This document shows, in pieces, positions 3,571-39,705 of a DNA stretch of 40,499 nt. Where the stretch lies: the IMG/VR virus record IMGVR_UViG_2667527965_000002; one strand, written 5' to 3'. This DNA is from a virus. Its lineage: Duplodnaviria; Heunggongvirae; Uroviricota; Caudoviricetes. The notes beneath the pieces were generated by a model. The model had not been told where the DNA came from and did no database searches. It was given only the letters and a program-made list of their open reading frames with translations. The position numbers were made by a program, and so were the translations under genes. Every line of letters starts with the position of its first letter. The stretch's first letter is position 1.

Positions 3571-3821
3571 TGTGCAGTTCCCTTTCTGGCTGTGTTTAAT
3601 AGCTGGTTAAACATCATGGTTAAGCTGTTACTACACCCAAACGGCATATCGTTAACACGGTATGTTGGAATGCCCTTGCGAACACCAGACTTCACGATCC
3701 GGCCGGTGCCATAGAGTTGCGATAATGCACCAGCGATCGAAGCTGTCTTTTTGTTTAAACCCTTAGCTATTTCAGCGCTGGTGGCGTTGGGGTGAGCCTG
3801 GAGATATTCAAATACGGTCAT
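3567..3821 (-). CDS. Small winged-helix DNA-binding protein
   Basis: 84 aa; N-terminal helix-turn-helix-like segment (SAEIAKGLNKKTASIAGALSQL); translationally coupled to neighbours. Confidence 0.55.
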   Translation of the reverse strand: MTVFEYLQAHPNATSAEIAKGLNKKTASIAGALSQLYGTGRIVKSGVRKGIPTYRVNDMPFGCSNSLTMMFNQLLNTARKGTAQ

Positions 3822-7848: not shown

Positions 7849-8412
7849 ATGGTAGACAGCATAAATACAGCAATCCGTCTGATGTGTAAGGCACACAAGC
7901 ATGGTCGCTTAGGTATGGCTTCCGATTTAGGGATGACTATCGACCAGTTCCACAACCACCTGTACCAGAAGTGTGGCAGTCGGTTCTTTACCTTGGCAGA
8001 ACTGGAACGGATGGAGGACCTGTCTGGTTCTTGTTACTTGGCCGAGTACCAGGCGAACCGCAAAGGGAAATGGCTGGTGGATGTTCCAACTGCTGAGAGC
8101 CTGGATAACGTTGAGCTGTACAGCATTGAGATGAAAGCGGCAGCAGCATCTGGTGAGCTGGCTAATGCCAAGATGGCAGCAGCGGCTGATGGGGTAATTG
8201 ATTCATCAGAGCGCAAAACGCTTTCAGAATTATTCAGTAAGAAGCTCCGCCACCAGATTCACGGGTTCCTGGGATTTATGGCGCTTTATGGGGTTGGTGT
8301 TTCAGATCAGGCGATTGACGTATTCGTTTCAACAGGCAGAAAAGGTGACGCCCGCGAGTGTGCAGCTCCGGGCGCCTTGGCGTGTCGTATCAGTGGAGAA
8401 ACTAACGCATGA
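7849..8412 (+). CDS. Putative CII-like / YdaT-like regulatory protein
   Basis: Position directly after cro; ATG 7849 with GAGGGA SD; assignment by position and general resemblance only. Confidence 0.45.
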   Translation: MVDSINTAIRLMCKAHKHGRLGMASDLGMTIDQFHNHLYQKCGSRFFTLAELERMEDLSGSCYLAEYQANRKGKWLVDVPTAESLDNVELYSIEMKAAAASGELANAKMAAAADGVIDSSERKTLSELFSKKLRHQIHGFLGFMALYGVGVSDQAIDVFVSTGRKGDARECAAPGALACRISGETNA

Positions 8413-8747
8413 ACAGTGTAACAACACAGTACCGCAGGTCGCAACTTATTGCTCGACCTATGCCGGGTGGAAAAGGTCCGGTGCAGTTCGTGTATGGGGT
8501 AATGGTATCCGGATGCTTTGAGCCTGTCTGCTACCAGTTTGCTGATTGGGTTGTAGGTGATTTCAACGGCCAGGCGGAGAAGGTCGAATGCGAGCACTCA
8601 ACAGATGGTTTAAAGACAGTTACGGCGTCCCTGTCAGGGTTATCCGGTGGGAACCAGAAACTCAACGGGTTATATACCTGCGCGACGGATATGAGCATGA
8701 GTGCTTCAGTCCACTCGAACAGTTCCAGCGTAAATTCAGGGAAATAG
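8409..8747 (+). CDS. Hypothetical protein
   Basis: ATG overlaps upstream stop (ATGA), GGAGAAA SD; the C-terminal half is low-complexity and overlaps an alternative-frame ORF. Confidence 0.35.
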   Translation: MNSVTTQYRRSQLIARPMPGGKGPVQFVYGVMVSGCFEPVCYQFADWVVGDFNGQAEKVECEHSTDGLKTVTASLSGLSGGNQKLNGLYTCATDMSMSASVHSNSSSVNSGK

Positions 8748-13434: not shown

Positions 13435-14013
13435 ATGATTAATCCTTCTGAAGTTGGTAAATCTGGTGAAATGGTTCGTCTTCGTACTCTGGAAAGCATC
13501 TGGATACAGGGTAAGTTGCGCATGTGGGGCCGCTGGTCTTATATCGGCGGTGGTAGTGGCGGGAATATGTTTAACCAGCTACTGGCATCAGGAAAAATCA
13601 CCAAGACAGCTATCAATGATGCTCTGCGCAGAATGAAGAAATCAGGAATCACCAAGCCTGAACTTGAAGCGTACCTTCGTGAAATCCTCAACAGCAAAAA
13701 TAAAAGCGGCCTGGCGTTCTGTTCAGACGAAGAAGGGTTGTTAGTGGACGGTGTCATTGCTTCTGTACTGATGAATGATGACTACCGATCTCTCTATAGC
13801 GTGATTGTCGACCGCCATCGCCTACGCAAGAGCAAGCTGCAAATGGCCAATGAACTGCAGGCTAAACATCCTGACTGGCCGCTGATCACCTGTCGTCGAC
13901 GCATTGACACTTGGCTAAGTCTTGCCGAATCGATCCTGTACGCTCCAGTTTGTGACGCATTCGGCACAAATAGCGACAGATTTAAGTTGCAGAGTGAGCA
14001 AGAAAGTGCTTAA
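13435..14013 (+). CDS. Putative late-gene antiterminator (Q-like)
   Basis: Located immediately upstream of a promoter-like sequence, short terminated leader and lysis cassette; WGRW motif resembles QuuD-type antiterminators. Confidence 0.5.
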   Translation: MINPSEVGKSGEMVRLRTLESIWIQGKLRMWGRWSYIGGGSGGNMFNQLLASGKITKTAINDALRRMKKSGITKPELEAYLREILNSKNKSGLAFCSDEEGLLVDGVIASVLMNDDYRSLYSVIVDRHRLRKSKLQMANELQAKHPDWPLITCRRRIDTWLSLAESILYAPVCDAFGTNSDRFKLQSEQESA

Positions 14014-14119: not shown

Positions 14120-14716
14120 ATGACTTGGCAAAACGTACCGTACGCTTTCGAAAAAACTACTGGCGAGTTGACCTTGGTAATAGAAAAATTACCGCCAATT
14201 GAAATCAGTTCTTCCTTTCCTTTTGAAACACTCATTACTGCTCTTGCAGGCGTTATTGCCGCAGGAATAACTGGTTGGGTTGCATACAGGGCAATCAAAG
14301 AAAATTTTGCCTTAGCCACATTACAGGCTCACTTGAATACTAATAAAGAATTGGCGCAACAAATACGTTTTGCTGGTGCTGAGCACGTGACAGACGTAAT
14401 TATGTTGGCCAGCACATTTGAGCAATGGCATCTGGTCGGAAATAAGAATATGGATATATTGGCTAAGGGTGTCTTCCCTGAAGAGATTCAAGTTCCAATA
14501 AAGGCCGCTGAAATAAGTAAAAATAAATTACTTCTATTAATAAGGCCTGATGAGGAAGGTTGCAAGTTGATAACCCTGACGGCAGATCTTCAAAAAGCGC
14601 TAAAAGTATGTTTTAAAAAAGGGTATTTTACTCCGGAAGAAAAAAAGTCATTTATTGATGCACAAAACGCCTTTATTTTTGGGTGTCATGAGTATATCAA
14701 TCAAAGTTTATCTTAA
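14120..14716 (+). CDS. AT-rich moron: hypothetical single-pass membrane protein
   Basis: 198 aa with one hydrophobic helix (residues about 33-56); strong SD AGGAGG; flanked by intrinsic terminators; lower GC than surrounding genes. Confidence 0.6.
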   Translation: MTWQNVPYAFEKTTGELTLVIEKLPPIEISSSFPFETLITALAGVIAAGITGWVAYRAIKENFALATLQAHLNTNKELAQQIRFAGAEHVTDVIMLASTFEQWHLVGNKNMDILAKGVFPEEIQVPIKAAEISKNKLLLLIRPDEEGCKLITLTADLQKALKVCFKKGYFTPEEKKSFIDAQNAFIFGCHEYINQSLS

Positions 14717-15469: not shown

Positions 15470-16086
15470 TGAACCAATCACAATTTCAACAGGCGGCTGG
15501 TGTAAGCGCCGGGTTAGCTTCGCGCTGGTTTCCGCACATTGATGCAGCGATGAAAGAGTTCGGCATTATTAAGCCTGAAGACCAGGCAATGTTTATTGCT
15601 CAGTCAGGACATGAATCAGCGGGATTCTCCGCGCTGGTGGAGAGCTTCAACTACACCCCAGCCGCTCTGCTGACCACCTTTGGACGCCGTATTACGAACT
15701 ATCAGGCATATATGCTTGGGCGTGACAAAGAAAAAGGGCAGGTAGCCAATCAGCCAGCCATTGCAAATCTGGTGTACAGCAATCGCCTCGGTAACAAAGC
15801 ATCAGGTGATGGGTGGAAATATCGTGGGCGTGGCCTGATTCAGATTACCGGTCTTGATAATTACCGCCGCTGCGGAACGGGATTAAAACTGGATTTAGTC
15901 AGTAATCCTGAGTTGCTGGAAAAGGATATCAACGCAGCACGGTCAGCTGCATGGTTCTACGCCACCAGCGGATGCCTGAGCTACTCCGGCGATCTTGTTC
16001 GCATCACTCAGATCATCAATGGTGGGCAGAACGGCATTAACGACCGCAGTGAACGTTACGCCAAAGCTAAAGCCGCACTGGTATGA
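15469..16086 (+). CDS. Endolysin, glycoside hydrolase family 19 (chitinase-like lysozyme)
   Basis: 205 aa with GH19-like catalytic region (QSGHESAGFS ... GRGLIQITG ...); follows holin-like genes. Confidence 0.85.
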   Translation: MNQSQFQQAAGVSAGLASRWFPHIDAAMKEFGIIKPEDQAMFIAQSGHESAGFSALVESFNYTPAALLTTFGRRITNYQAYMLGRDKEKGQVANQPAIANLVYSNRLGNKASGDGWKYRGRGLIQITGLDNYRRCGTGLKLDLVSNPELLEKDINAARSAAWFYATSGCLSYSGDLVRITQIINGGQNGINDRSERYAKAKAALV

Positions 16087-16093
16087 GGTCGCT

Positions 16094-16363
16094 ATGGGAC
16101 TTGAAATGATTATCGGCCTGGCTGTTGCTGTACTGGCTGCAATTGCAGGTGTTTTTGGTCTGGGTAAATCACGCGGTACAAGTATCGCCGAAACAAAAGC
16201 GGACCAGCAACGCACTGAAGAACGTACAGCAGCTACTGAAGCAGTTGCAGAACGCCGGGTAGAGACAACAAAAGGAGCCAGGGATGTACAGCAAACTGTT
16301 AGTCATCTTCCTGATGACGATGTTGACCGCGAGTTGCGCGAAAAATTTACCCGCAAAACCTGA
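16094..16363 (+). CDS. i-spanin (Rz-like) with N-terminal transmembrane segment
   Basis: ATG 16094 with GAGG SD overlapping endolysin end; N-terminal hydrophobic helix then charged coiled region. Confidence 0.5.
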   Translation: MGLEMIIGLAVAVLAAIAGVFGLGKSRGTSIAETKADQQRTEERTAATEAVAERRVETTKGARDVQQTVSHLPDDDVDRELREKFTRKT

Positions 16364-16526
16364 AGTAACGGACACGGCCTGTGACTGGGTGAGCATCATC
16401 TACCTCACTGAGCACGATATTGCCGTGCTGGATAAACAGACGAAGCGGGACATATTGGCGCACAACAAATCAGTGCAGGCTAACTGCATGAAGGAGCCAG
16501 GTCGTGAACGTAGAGAACCTAAGTGA
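16284..16526 (+). CDS. o-spanin (Rz1-like) lipoprotein, out-of-frame overlap with i-spanin
   Basis: Signal peptide ending LTASC lipobox-like; embedded/overlapping arrangement typical of spanin pairs. Confidence 0.45.
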   Translation: MYSKLLVIFLMTMLTASCAKNLPAKPEVTDTACDWVSIIYLTEHDIAVLDKQTKRDILAHNKSVQANCMKEPGRERREPK

Positions 16527-16734
16527 CGCGCATTACATCTATAACGAGATGAAAGAGCTACAGCGACAGAAAGGCATACTGGAAAGCGGTGCCGGACTTG
16601 GGGTGACAATCCAGTCGACCTATCAGGATAATGCCTTTCTTGATGCCATACGCCCGCATGCAGTGGATGAACTTGATCGGCGTATAGAGGAGAAAAAAGA
16701 TGTACTGGTTAATTTGGGCCTCTCCTTCTCTTAA
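16504..16734 (+). CDS. Hypothetical small protein
   Basis: GTG start with AGGAG SD; 76 aa. Confidence 0.3.
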   Translation: MNVENLSDAHYIYNEMKELQRQKGILESGAGLGVTIQSTYQDNAFLDAIRPHAVDELDRRIEEKKDVLVNLGLSFS

Positions 16735-16779
16735 ACTATCATGCATTACAGCAGGCACGTATCAGGTGCCTGCCATCAG

Positions 16780-17220
16780 TTAATAGGATATTTTATCGGA
16801 AGACTTGAGCGCTTTTAATGTAGCTTCAAGTATATCGAGAAATAGATCAACATCTTCATAATCATAAGATGGATTAGGTTTGTACTCCCCAATGTAAACC
16901 AACCCATTTTTACCTAAAAAGAAGCTAATTACTTCCTTGTTATTTTCATCAGTTGAGTCAGTTGCAACGAACTTCAAAAGAGGGGCTTCATTGATGACTA
17001 CCAGTTTCTCATTGAAAACGAGTTCTAACCCATATGTTGAAAGTTCTAGGGTTAGTCTGTTTTCTGCATCTTGATTGAAAATCAAGGTGTTAGAAGTTAA
17101 AGAACTTTCTTTGCATGAGTCAATAACGTTTTTCTTAAGTTTGATTGCTTTTTCATCTAAAGCCTTTTTGTGTTCTGCACACTTAATAACCTTACGGACG
17201 TCTAAATAGTCGATGCTCAT
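16780..17220 (-). CDS. AT-rich antisense moron: hypothetical soluble protein
   Basis: 146 aa from ATG 17220 with AAGAGG SD; low GC; opposite to flanking late genes; hairpin GCAGGCAC/GTGCCTGC at 16750-16772 downstream. Confidence 0.55.
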   Translation of the reverse strand: MSIDYLDVRKVIKCAEHKKALDEKAIKLKKNVIDSCKESSLTSNTLIFNQDAENRLTLELSTYGLELVFNEKLVVINEAPLLKFVATDSTDENNKEVISFFLGKNGLVYIGEYKPNPSYDYEDVDLFLDILEATLKALKSSDKISY

Positions 17221-17311
17221 AATTAAACCTCTTATTGATGAGTTAATAAACATTGAGCCATTAAGGCCAATATCAATACTAAAGAATGAGAAAGTTTAAG
17301 TTATTAGAGTT

Positions 17312-17599
17312 ATGTCTCAATTTGATGCCACTTCGAACACAAAAATGAACCTAACAAGAGGTCATATGCGTCTAACTGTATTAGATGACGATCCCGGCAG
17401 GAAGATTAATCTCGGTGTAGAGCGATACGCTGTTTTTCTCGATGGTATAGAGGTTAAGCATGTCTTCACTGCTGACGATGAGAAGGGCGAAGTAATCGCA
17501 GCCGTTCCTGATGAGCGTGGTTATATGACGACAGAGAACGGTGAAGTGAAGCGGCATACGCTTCACGGCTCTGTGAGGATTGAACCATGCCAGCGTTAA
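17312..17599 (+). CDS. Hypothetical phage protein
   Basis: 95 aa ORF upstream of the HNH endonuclease gene. Confidence 0.45.
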   Translation: MSQFDATSNTKMNLTRGHMRLTVLDDDPGRKINLGVERYAVFLDGIEVKHVFTADDEKGEVIAAVPDERGYMTTENGEVKRHTLHGSVRIEPCQR

Positions 17600-17937
17600 T
17601 CCCTCGCGCATGTCGCAAGAGAGGTTGTCCCGGTACGACTACGGACCGTTCAGGCTACTGTGAGCAGCATCGAAATGAGGGCTGGCAACAGCACCAGCAG
17701 GGTAAGAGCCGCCATCAGCGTGGCTACGGCAGTAAGTGGGATATCAAGCGCGCGCGCATCCTGAAGCGTGATAATCATCTGTGTCAGAACTGCCTGCGTA
17801 GTGGACGTGCTGTCGCGGCCACAACCGTTGACCATATCAAGGCTAAGGCACATGGGGGTACCGATGATGATTCGAACCTCGAAAGCCTGTGCTGGCCCTG
17901 CCACCGCTCGAAAACAGGTCGCGAGCGCTTTAAATGA
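17587..17937 (+). CDS. HNH endonuclease (packaging-associated, HK97 gp74-like position)
   Basis: Cys pairs CxxC ... CxxC and HxxxxH ... DH HNH motif (VDHIKAKAHGGTDDDSNLESLCWPCH); adjacent to terminase small subunit. Confidence 0.85.
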   Translation: MPALIPRACRKRGCPGTTTDRSGYCEQHRNEGWQQHQQGKSRHQRGYGSKWDIKRARILKRDNHLCQNCLRSGRAVAATTVDHIKAKAHGGTDDDSNLESLCWPCHRSKTGRERFK

Positions 17938-18093
17938 TAGTAATTATCATCAACAGGCGTAGAGGGGAGGGGGAGGTCAAATCCCTGTAGCCGGGAGCCC
18001 AAAGGACCGCCGCCTAGCCTTTCTTCACATCGCCGCAGGTTAGAAAACTTTTTTTGGGGTTCCCCAGCCGATGATTAATAGGAGTTTTCGATT
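17938..18093. other. Candidate cos region between HNH and terminase small subunit
   Basis: Non-coding GC-rich segment; element GGACCGCCGCCT (reverse complement AGGCGGCGGTCC) resembles lambda cohesive end GGGCGGCGACCT; purine-rich AGAGGGGAGGGGGAGG tract. Confidence 0.3.
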
Positions 18094-18567
18094 ATGTCAG
18101 GACCGCCGAAAACCCCTACCCATCTGCGTTTGGTGAGGGGTAACCCATCAAAACGACCGATCAACAATAACGAGCCGAAACCACCTAAAGGGGTCCCCCC
18201 AGTTCCCAAGCATTTCGACAAGCAGGGGAAGTACTGGTTTAAGCGGATGGCTGAAGAGTTGGACGCCATCGGCGTGATCTCCCAGCTTGACGGGCGAGCC
18301 CTTGAACTGCTTGTGGAAGCGTATACCGAATACAGACATCACTGCGACACGCTGGAGATTGAGGGGTATACGTACCGAACTGAAACGCAGACTGGTGACG
18401 TCATGATAAAGGCACATCCGGCAGCAATTATGAAAGCCGACGCCTGGAAAAGGCTGCGAGCCATGCTTGGTGAGTTCGGAATGACGCCTGCCAGTCGATC
18501 GAAAGTAAGTACAAAAACTCCGGGCGAAGTTGATCTTATTGCTGAATTTATGAAAGCGAGGGACTAA
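18094..18567 (+). CDS. Terminase small subunit (P27/HK97-like family)
   Basis: 157 aa; AGGAG SD; immediately precedes large terminase. Confidence 0.85.
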   Translation: MSGPPKTPTHLRLVRGNPSKRPINNNEPKPPKGVPPVPKHFDKQGKYWFKRMAEELDAIGVISQLDGRALELLVEAYTEYRHHCDTLEIEGYTYRTETQTGDVMIKAHPAAIMKADAWKRLRAMLGEFGMTPASRSKVSTKTPGEVDLIAEFMKARD

Positions 18568-36973: not shown

Positions 36974-37084
36974 TTGATCGTTTTTAGCGATCAATAACAT
37001 AATATTGATCTATCCAATCAATTATACCCACCAGAATTGTATTGGTATCGTCTAAGATACTGAATTCCTCTGGATACTATCAAA

Positions 37085-37318
37085 ATGAGAAAACTGATTA
37101 TCTGCATGGCAGGCGCTGTCATGCTTACAGGATGCGCTGGCGTAATTGAGAAACAGGAACCAGTTTGCAGCGGCACTGCAATCGTTGGCGGTCAGGAAAC
37201 TACGGTTCAGATTTACGGTGTGCGTAAACAAAACAACCAGACGCAGTACCGGGCTGGATATCCTTTCAGCTGGCGCTGGGTAAGTGCGAATACATTTACC
37301 GAAACAACCTGCAAATAA
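37085..37318 (+). CDS. Small lipoprotein (possible Cor-like superinfection-exclusion protein)
   Basis: 77 aa; signal peptide with lipobox LTGC; own terminator; located between J region and tail fibre gene. Confidence 0.5.
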   Translation: MRKLIICMAGAVMLTGCAGVIEKQEPVCSGTAIVGGQETTVQIYGVRKQNNQTQYRAGYPFSWRWVSANTFTETTCK

Positions 37319-37339
37319 CCCACTACGCTTAAACATAAA

Positions 37340-37362
37340 CCTCGCTCCGGCGGGGTTTTTTT
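37340..37362 (+). terminator. Rho-independent terminator
   Basis: Stem CCTCGC/GCGGGG (one G-U pair), loop TCCG, followed by T7. Confidence 0.6.
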
Positions 37363-37378
37363 ATTGCCTGGAGAAAAT

Positions 37379-39102: not shown

Positions 39103-39705
39103 CTAGTTTAAAAATGGATAAACTTTAAAAGAAGCCCATAAATCATTGTTAAGTGCCAACAAACCTACGGAGATATAGGATAATATCGCAAGTGCTCCTG
39201 TAAAATAAAGTATGGATTTCTTTATTTTTTTCCAAAGAATTAGGGCTGGAATTGAAGTTACGGCAATCACACCCATCTGATAACAAAATTGTCTGGCAAT
39301 GTCACCATCACTCCAAGGGTATATAAAAACATAAGGGGCGAAAAGTATTAAATGGACAAGTCTAAGTATAACCCCTATACATGCCCCAGGTATTGCAAAA
39401 AAGCCCCCCGCGCTTTGTAATAATAAGCTTGCCCTCATGCCGGGTATGAGAATAAAAAAATTAAGAATAGCCCAGAATATTAATATTATCGTGGCATAGC
39501 CAAAAAGAGTGCTTAACCCAGATTGACCGCCAACTGCTGTAAACTGTGGCGTCTGGTAAGACTGGCTCGGCTGACTAACTGATTTGCTGGCATCACATGC
39601 ACTTTGCCAGCTCTCTGCATTGTCTGCCTGCCATTTATGATCATACTGTGTAAAAGGCCTGTCACTGGTAACATACTTGCCTTCATCATCTTGCCTAACA
39701 CCCAT
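39103..39705 (-). CDS. AT-rich hypothetical polytopic membrane protein
   Basis: 200 aa; about 70-aa polar N-terminal region then about four hydrophobic helices; low GC. Confidence 0.55.
   Translation of the reverse strand: MGVRQDDEGKYVTSDRPFTQYDHKWQADNAESWQSACDASKSVSQPSQSYQTPQFTAVGGQSGLSTLFGYATIILIFWAILNFFILIPGMRASLLLQSAGGFFAIPGACIGVILRLVHLILFAPYVFIYPWSDGDIARQFCYQMGVIAVTSIPALILWKKIKKSILYFTGALAILSYISVGLLALNNDLWASFKVYPFLN

Follow-up and report, generated by a model that had tools for sequence, protein, structure and literature searches.

We analysed a 40,499-nucleotide (nt) stretch of an HK97-like lambdoid prophage (IMG/VR record IMGVR_UViG_2667527965_000002, hereafter the window), and in particular a small gene that runs against the late operon. 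This gene (16780..17220, minus strand) encodes a protein of 146 amino acids (aa) and 16.6 kDa, which starts with MSIDYLDV and belongs to an uncharacterised family. It is flanked by two plus-strand late genes of the phage backbone, a 76-aa gene on the left (16504..16734; phrog_5415) and a 77-aa gene on the right (17366..17599; phrog_3540 / phrog_24619), which overlaps the start of the HNH gene. Together with a hairpin past its stop codon and a 137-base-pair (bp) AT-rich 5' region, it forms a 623-bp cassette (16735..17357) that is absent from siblings with an empty site.

The limits of the cassette were given by the IMG/VR siblings L024 and L044, in which window positions 15932-16734 and 17358-18100 are contiguous, the 76-aa gene adjoins the 77-aa gene, and only about 19-20 nt separate the stop codon of the former from the ATG of the latter. 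The guanine-plus-cytosine (GC) content of the corresponding gap in the window (16735-17365) is 0.345. The homologous locus L013 has another upstream neighbour, the HNH gene directly, and yet its homology to the window extends to 17345; the 5' region therefore belongs to the cassette. An earlier note, made from the letters of this DNA alone, had placed the element at 16741-17310. An AT-rich element does lie there, but the comparison with empty sites gives the wider interval. In the moron concept of Juhala and Hendrix, an extra transcription unit of deviant composition, provided with a terminator, lies between genes that are adjacent in relatives. Here we found a discrete insertion between genes adjacent in siblings, deviant composition and a terminator-type hairpin of its own, in a hypervariable slot that also receives taiEcA. 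We are thus confident that the cassette is a self-contained moron, placed at the lysis/packaging junction between two late genes that are translationally close, as had been suggested from the sequence.

The other elements named in the earlier note, a soluble 146-aa minus-strand gene of low GC content with its own Shine-Dalgarno sequence, were also recovered. Read mechanically, the open reading frame (ORF) reaches an ATG at 17253 (157 aa); every homologue begins at the 146-aa position, 7 nt ahead of which lies a Shine-Dalgarno AAGAGG (17228..17233, minus strand), kept as AGGAG or AAGAGG in L003, L011, and L012. The gene has a GC content of 0.342 (0.333 at third codon positions) against 0.498 for the window, and its product has an isoelectric point of 4.9 and no hydrophobic segment (maximum Kyte-Doolittle mean over 19 residues, 1.08). 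From base composition, we estimate that a frame of about 150 codons would stay open at 34% GC with a probability of roughly 1e-5. Ratios of nonsynonymous to synonymous substitution rates (dN/dS), calculated pairwise against homologues whose synonymous sites are often saturated, range from 0.08 to 0.43, and the gene is, as judged from these sequence comparisons, evolving under purifying selection. It is the sole minus-strand gene across 14746-38647, which upholds the earlier description of it as the only one of the late region: the remaining minus-strand ORFs overlap plus-strand genes, and the single ambiguous gap (36974-37363) is occupied by a plus-strand lipoprotein gene. At 7891-8450 of both L016 and L017, loci that are not identical, the homologue is broken by a frameshift in the same A-run (after ...NKDKK), and P0015, of 54 aa, corresponds to the N-terminal part of this broken homologue; the frameshift could be a shared pseudogene, a homopolymer sequencing error or slippage.

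The hairpin past the stop codon (16751..16773, minus strand; one base off the interval 16750-16772 read earlier) has the form GCAGGCAC-7 nt-GTGCCTGC, with an 8-bp GC-rich stem and a 7-nt loop. Folded as minus-strand RNA, the segment 16735-16790 reaches -20.4 kcal/mol (z = -4.5), a stability attained by none of 200 shuffled sequences. The GGCAC/GTGCC core is retained in L003, L004, L005, L011, and L012, while loops and downstream DNA differ, and the hairpins of L004 and L005 carry an added T-run. More distant family members have unrelated hairpins, of which those of L103, L106, and L111 are canonical terminators with T-runs. The hairpin is probably a terminator or a 3' stabiliser of the minus-strand transcript. 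A scan of the window against Rfam gave no match.

On the other side of the gene, the AT-rich 5' region (17221..17357, minus strand) is the presumed location of a promoter, since no co-oriented gene lies upstream. Its first 91 bp, which separate the start codon from that of the neighbouring ORF at 17312, have a GC content of 0.26. That ORF (17312-17599), read as 95 aa, probably starts in fact at the ATG at 17366, where it encodes the 77-aa protein: an AAGAGG lies ahead of this ATG (17356-17361), annotated homologues have 75-77 aa, and the 18 additional codons come from the inserted cassette, so that the longer reading would be an artefact of the insertion. In a near-identical Escherichia coli prophage, RefSeq annotates a 58-aa minus-strand ORF across the 77-aa gene, probably a shadow call. 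Perfect TATAAT boxes are present in L002 and L103. In the window, the region contains an inverted repeat, ATTGA-N16-TCAAT (17252..17277, minus strand), 32-57 nt before the start codon. Both arms persist in relatives at 72-98% identity, among them L003, L011, and L012 and, in the form TTGA/TCAA, L013, while the spacer diverges, and the repeat is possibly a site for a dimeric regulator.

Genomic position was judged at about 20 loci from three subfamilies that had enough flanking DNA. Besides the window, these comprised an E. coli prophage (L001), 11 IMG/VR loci (L007-L017, two of them duplicating other contexts), Pectobacterium (L002), Logan contigs (L003-L005), Atlantibacter (L103, L104), Citrobacter koseri (L106), another E. 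coli (L111), and Citrobacter amalonaticus and Cronobacter (L108-L110); a 1.2-kb contig (L107) is too short to show more than a divergent orientation. In every context judged, the gene runs opposite to the late genes and occupies the interval that separates the lysis genes from the packaging block. This block opens with the 77-aa gene, with HNH, with a 485-aa glycosyltransferase preceding HNH as in phage HK542, or, in subfamily 3, with a small terminase subunit (TerS) of Terminase_2 type, 26 bp off, in pac-type phages. The 485-aa and 196-aa neighbours in L004 and L005 were considered as gtr serotype-conversion genes and rejected as such, as they match the glycosyltransferases gp54/gp55 of HK542; because these precede HNH, the slot is the same. 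Position and orientation hold down to about 15% protein identity, in cos- and pac-type phages whose large terminase subunits (TerL) share between 29% and 100% identity. In all members examined, the GC content of the gene is 0.27-0.39 in surroundings of 0.46-0.54, and a stem-loop directly follows the stop codon. Low GC content, a hairpin of its own and reverse orientation are thus stable across the family and not signs of a recent accident. No other gene co-occurs with the family across these contexts.

Protein family and predicted fold

A search of 5.8 billion proteins returned 12 clusters of relatives, an exhaustive profile search of 1.8 billion representatives returned 8, and a wider profile gathered 27 clusters that form three subfamilies. 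Wherever a source is named, it belongs to the Enterobacterales (E. coli, Salmonella, Pectobacterium, Atlantibacter, Citrobacter, Lelliottia, or Cronobacter). No match was found by tblastn in 50,697 phage records, nor any confirmed match by scanning genome contigs with a profile built from the family alignment, and accession WP_057107373 is mentioned in no paper that we found. A 1,037-aa repeat protein (P0016) gave four short profile matches, which we treated as resemblance at the level of beta-hairpins.

Searches of Pfam, PHROG, NCBIfam, PADLOC, and the PDB sequences yielded no relative of the 146-aa protein. We discarded sub-threshold matches to Pfam DNA_pol3_delta (E-value 0.037), NCBIfam DivIVA, and the PDB entries penicillin acylase and adenovirus fiber, together with a spurious match to PDC-M24A in PADLOC-DB v2, reached by one of 24 members of the protein family (E-value 0.009, 14 bits). 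Homology to a structural or lysis protein, which the earlier note had named as the finding that would speak against its reading, was looked for and not found. The remote-homology and structure check that it had recommended produced a predicted fold and one match, to an uncharacterised phage protein, but no known defence or conversion family.

Only M1, L6, V8, L21, and K29 are invariant throughout the family, F46 and G106 being nearly so; the KCAEHK and NPSY motifs of subfamily 1 do not extend to the rest. With so few invariant residues there is no catalytic motif, and the acidic cytoplasmic protein therefore most likely acts by binding another protein. AlphaFold2, run on 24 sequences, predicted a helix (8-38), six antiparallel strands and a second helix (126-140), with a mean predicted local distance difference test (pLDDT) of 79.7 and a predicted template modelling (pTM) score of 0.69, and gave an identical topology from 10 sequences. 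The modelled topology may bear a weak resemblance to that of frataxin; by sequence, no membership of Frataxin/CyaY was found (no Pfam or PDB sequence match), and a Foldseek search of the model against the PDB gave no match.

The sole significant Foldseek match, over the full length (E-value 3e-5, template modelling score 0.72-0.74), was to a 151-aa protein of Burkholderia phage Mana (A0A873WDE3), which we equate from its length with the coding sequence of Mana gp15 (MT701591, L112, 9269-9724). Like the 146-aa gene, Mana gp15 is a low-GC gene (0.51-0.56 against 0.65-0.72) within a late operon and has its own annotated terminator; in contrast, it belongs to a P2-like myophage, where it is carried on the late strand with tail-completion and spike genes on either side. 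The two have no sequence similarity (hhalign probability 0.1%). The same fold may thus recur as cargo in an unrelated phage lineage. The protein family is new and uncharacterised, whereas the type of feature, an antisense moron at the lysis-packaging junction, was already known.

The insertion site and other genes of the prophage

The site between the 76-aa and 77-aa genes receives many different genes. Among 75 IMG/VR loci whose HNH gene is at least 91% identical to that of the window, about 65 different architectures were found in the 3 kb upstream. Reverse low-GC occupants of these loci include the 146-aa gene family (2 loci), a 179-aa YfbU-domain protein (5 loci), also present in phage vB_EcoS-689R5, and unannotated ORFs of 131, 177, 181, and 226 aa. 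The 77-aa gene itself occurs at no fewer than 194 IMG/VR loci, the majority of which lack the cassette. Of 77 loci with this gene, 5 hold the 146-aa gene family and 9 are empty; the rest have an ORF of at least 90 aa within 400 nt, reverse in 28 cases and forward in 31 (counts that are unscreened for antisense shadow ORFs), or neither (4 loci). The 179-aa protein and the ORFs of 131, 181, 187, and 226 aa had no convincing match in Pfam, and the 179-aa and 212-aa occupants had none in PADLOC. Late-strand proteins of 97-115 aa with an Acb2/Tad1-hairpin domain are encoded at 2256-2603 of L005 and upstream of HNH in L072, L074, L075, L089, L096, and L098.

The sibling L028 encodes TaiEcA (minus strand) and AtiEcA (plus strand) in this interval, the flanks being the same 76-aa gene and HNH gene as in the window. 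Beside the 76-aa gene of this locus (3753-3775) lies a hairpin, GCAGGCAT-8-TGCCTGT, whose left arm and upstream bases are in common with the hairpin of the window although the cargo is unrelated, a likeness that suggests exchange of cargo by recombination at the junction. In the TaiEcA clade (alignment A2), an invariant R95-x4-H100 (LRNDLAH) is HEPN-like, and a weak match to PADLOC CARF_HEPN was obtained (E-value 0.004). Similar motifs are present in the 187-aa forward ORF (LRNAFLH), the 226-aa ORF (ARNSAHH), and the 181-aa ORF (RCPIAH), which on this basis may be distant Tai-like proteins.

In the remainder of the window, the integrase and the early region precede a gene for a Q-like antiterminator (13435-14013), which is followed by the holins, a GH19 endolysin and Rz/Rz1 (to 16526), and then by the 76-aa gene. 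Beyond the 77-aa gene come HNH (17587-17937), TerS, TerL, portal, protease, capsid, and tail genes. Three further genes drew our attention. Between the Q-like antiterminator and the holin, a second cargo-like gene (14120-14716, plus strand, GC 0.38) encodes 198 aa with one apparent hydrophobic segment; it matches phrog_18859, of unknown function, and nothing in Pfam or PADLOC. A 77-aa ORF at 37085-37318 (plus strand), between a phrog_425 membrane-associated gene and the tail fibre, has an N-terminus, MRKLIICMAGAVMLTGC, with a lipoprotein signal and lipobox, and its product, judged without a homology search, looks like a Cor-type superinfection-exclusion lipoprotein. Past the tail fibre, a gene at 39103-39705 (minus strand, GC 0.40) encodes a hydrophobic 200-aa protein without a PHROG match, probably a membrane protein; it is possibly another cargo gene expressed in the lysogen, at the end of the prophage.

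Possible function of the 146-aa protein

Phage lambda carries bor in the Rz-to-cos interval, in reverse orientation, and expresses it in the lysogen. The position and orientation of the 146-aa gene are equivalent, but Bor is an outer-membrane lipoprotein, whereas the 146-aa protein has neither a signal peptide nor a lipobox and is unrelated to it in sequence.

In phi80, orf63 (taiEcA) likewise runs against the late genes, in the interval from the lysis genes to cos (He et al. 2024, PMC11364771), a position that we confirmed in the sequence (L019, 4366-4980). The lysogen produces TaiEcA, which prevents rival lambdoid phages from assembling their tails; the amount of TaiEcA falls when Q drives the late operon across taiEcA, and it is neutralised by the product of the adjacent late-strand gene orf64 (atiEcA). 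Most Tai homologues are located "before terS" (PMC11364771). Tai membership was defined by PSI-BLAST, and an adjacent Ati gene accompanies only some of the Tai loci. The present cassette shares with Tai/Ati the arrangement of a single small low-GC gene, antiparallel within a Q-dependent late operon, from lysis to packaging. It differs in the size of the product (146 aa instead of 170-280 aa for Tai), in the absence of the invariant R-x4-H of the TaiEcA clade, and in its distribution, Tai being found in several hotspots and the 146-aa family in one only. The family accession is absent from the tables of Tai homologues in PMC11364771. Tab of Pseudomonas phage JBD26 is an 83-residue minus-strand moron with its own promoter, lying beside the terminase genes, between terS and terL, and always accompanied by a late-strand anti-Tab gene; it is expressed from the prophage and blocks rival phages (PMC10884400). 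Here again the likeness lies in a minus-strand moron in or beside the packaging genes that encodes a small non-enzymatic protein, whereas the host and the phage group are different, and no sequence relation to the 146-aa protein was found.

The earlier note had also suggested, from the opposite orientation, that the gene could be expressed in the lysogen, as is typical of lysogenic-conversion or defence genes; by analogy and by position this part of its interpretation is reasonable. By analogy with these systems, the reading that we tentatively prefer is that the 146-aa protein is a non-enzymatic binder, expressed in the lysogen and serving in competition between phages. Its own promoter would drive the gene in the lysogen, opposite to a silent late operon, and the protein would interfere with a superinfecting or co-resident rival phage. 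Virion assembly or packaging would be the most plausible target, given the analogy with Tai and Tab and the constant neighbourhood of the gene. Upon prophage induction, Q-antiterminated late transcription would cross the cassette in antisense and lower its expression, which would confer self-immunity without an antidote gene.

Several observations weigh against this proposal. In Pfam, PHROG, NCBIfam, and PADLOC, no known protein of defence, counter-defence, or virulence is homologous to the 146-aa protein. It is not a recognisable Tai homologue either, with a BLASTP E-value of 1 and an hhalign probability of 0.3% between profiles of 12 and 13 sequences, a comparison that covered the TaiEcA clade only. 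No cognate antidote gene co-occurs with it. We considered the 77-aa (or 95-aa) neighbour as an Ati-like antidote and rejected it, since its weak pairwise match (E-value 4e-4) fell to a probability of 0.5% in profile comparison, and since it is a backbone gene, widespread without the cassette. Self-immunity by antisense transcription alone is speculative, because Tai and Tab both need an antidote. As to expression, the best sigma-70 match in the 5' region, TTGAGA (17320-17315)-16 nt-TAAACT (17298-17293), scores 9/12 but stands only about 1.5 standard deviations over background, the spacing between gene and terS in subfamily 3 is just 26 bp, and the hairpin of the window lacks a T-tract, which makes its strength as a terminator uncertain. 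The gene is also rare, cassette DNA being present in one of 5,426 complete E. coli genomes. Finally, the slot hosts the forward-oriented, counter-defence-like Acb2/Tad1-hairpin proteins as well, and position alone therefore cannot separate defence from counter-defence.

A more far-reaching version of the proposal seems doubtful to us. The 146-aa protein would then be the founding member of a new family of single-protein prophage immunity, locked in position before the packaging genes across three subfamilies (about 15% identity), in cos-type (HNH/Terminase_4) and pac-type (Terminase_2/Terminase_6) phages alike, and its target would be a protein of packaging or virion assembly in the rival, with self-immunity provided by antisense read-through and no antidote.

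Among the other explanations, it is unlikely that the protein is a lysogenic-conversion factor, that is, a small cytoplasmic binder modulating a host regulator or a stress pathway in the manner of lambda bor or of anti-adaptors. Such a factor could share the anatomy of the moron and its slot and would be soluble and non-enzymatic, as the 146-aa protein is, and lambda bor offers a precedent for lysogenic expression from the equivalent reverse position. The missing signal peptide and lipobox set the protein apart from Bor, however, and there is no similarity to a known regulator or virulence factor. Moreover, the family is confined to prophages and is always beside packaging genes, and the only characterised cargo in this slot of close relatives is anti-phage (PMC11364771). 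Less likely again is a counter-defence role, in which a small acidic inhibitor or sponge, made from its own promoter early after infection, would act on a defence of the host or of a rival prophage. The protein is indeed small, acidic, non-enzymatic, and fast-diverging; in cos phages its gene is close to the end of the genome that is first to enter the cell; and Acb2/Tad1-hairpin genes and AtiEcA are found in this region of sibling phages. These sibling genes, however, are all on the late strand, while the 146-aa family is always antiparallel with its own hairpin, which is the arrangement of the defence partner in Tai/Ati and in Tab/anti-Tab (PMC11364771, PMC10884400), and no known anti-defence family is similar to it.

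The strict position and orientation across three subfamilies and two packaging types would be explained if the cassette served the life cycle of the phage itself, the protein regulating packaging or lysis, or the convergent transcript dampening leaky late expression in the lysogen. The co-segregation of subfamily 3 with a Terminase_2-type TerS and the conserved inverted repeat of the 5' region would fit such a role. We nevertheless consider it improbable: the cassette is missing from close siblings in which the flanks abut, and is hence dispensable, its gene occurs in only about 5 of 77 related loci, purifying selection at the protein level argues against a purely RNA role, and linkage within a recombination hotspot could account for the adjacency. 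Least probable of all, and by our judgement hardly credible, is an orphan toxin or antitoxin, a remnant of an abortive-infection system, or a selfish ORFan without benefit. The extreme rarity of the family and the shared frameshift of L016 and L017 could be read in this way, but dN/dS is well under 1 with synonymous divergence saturated, seven genera still have intact copies, and no partner gene co-occurs.

Should the tentative reading as a weapon between phages be wrong, the 146-aa gene would be one more prophage ORFan. The 76-aa/77-aa junction upstream of HNH in HK97-like Enterobacterales prophages is a precisely bounded and highly diverse cargo slot, and the dozens of unannotated low-GC genes that it holds make it well suited to a search for new functions in defence and counter-defence. 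If the reading is right, the 146-aa proteins would make up, along with Tai and Tab, a third unrelated family of antisense morons that sabotage rivals from beside the packaging genes, and one that seemingly works without an antidote gene.

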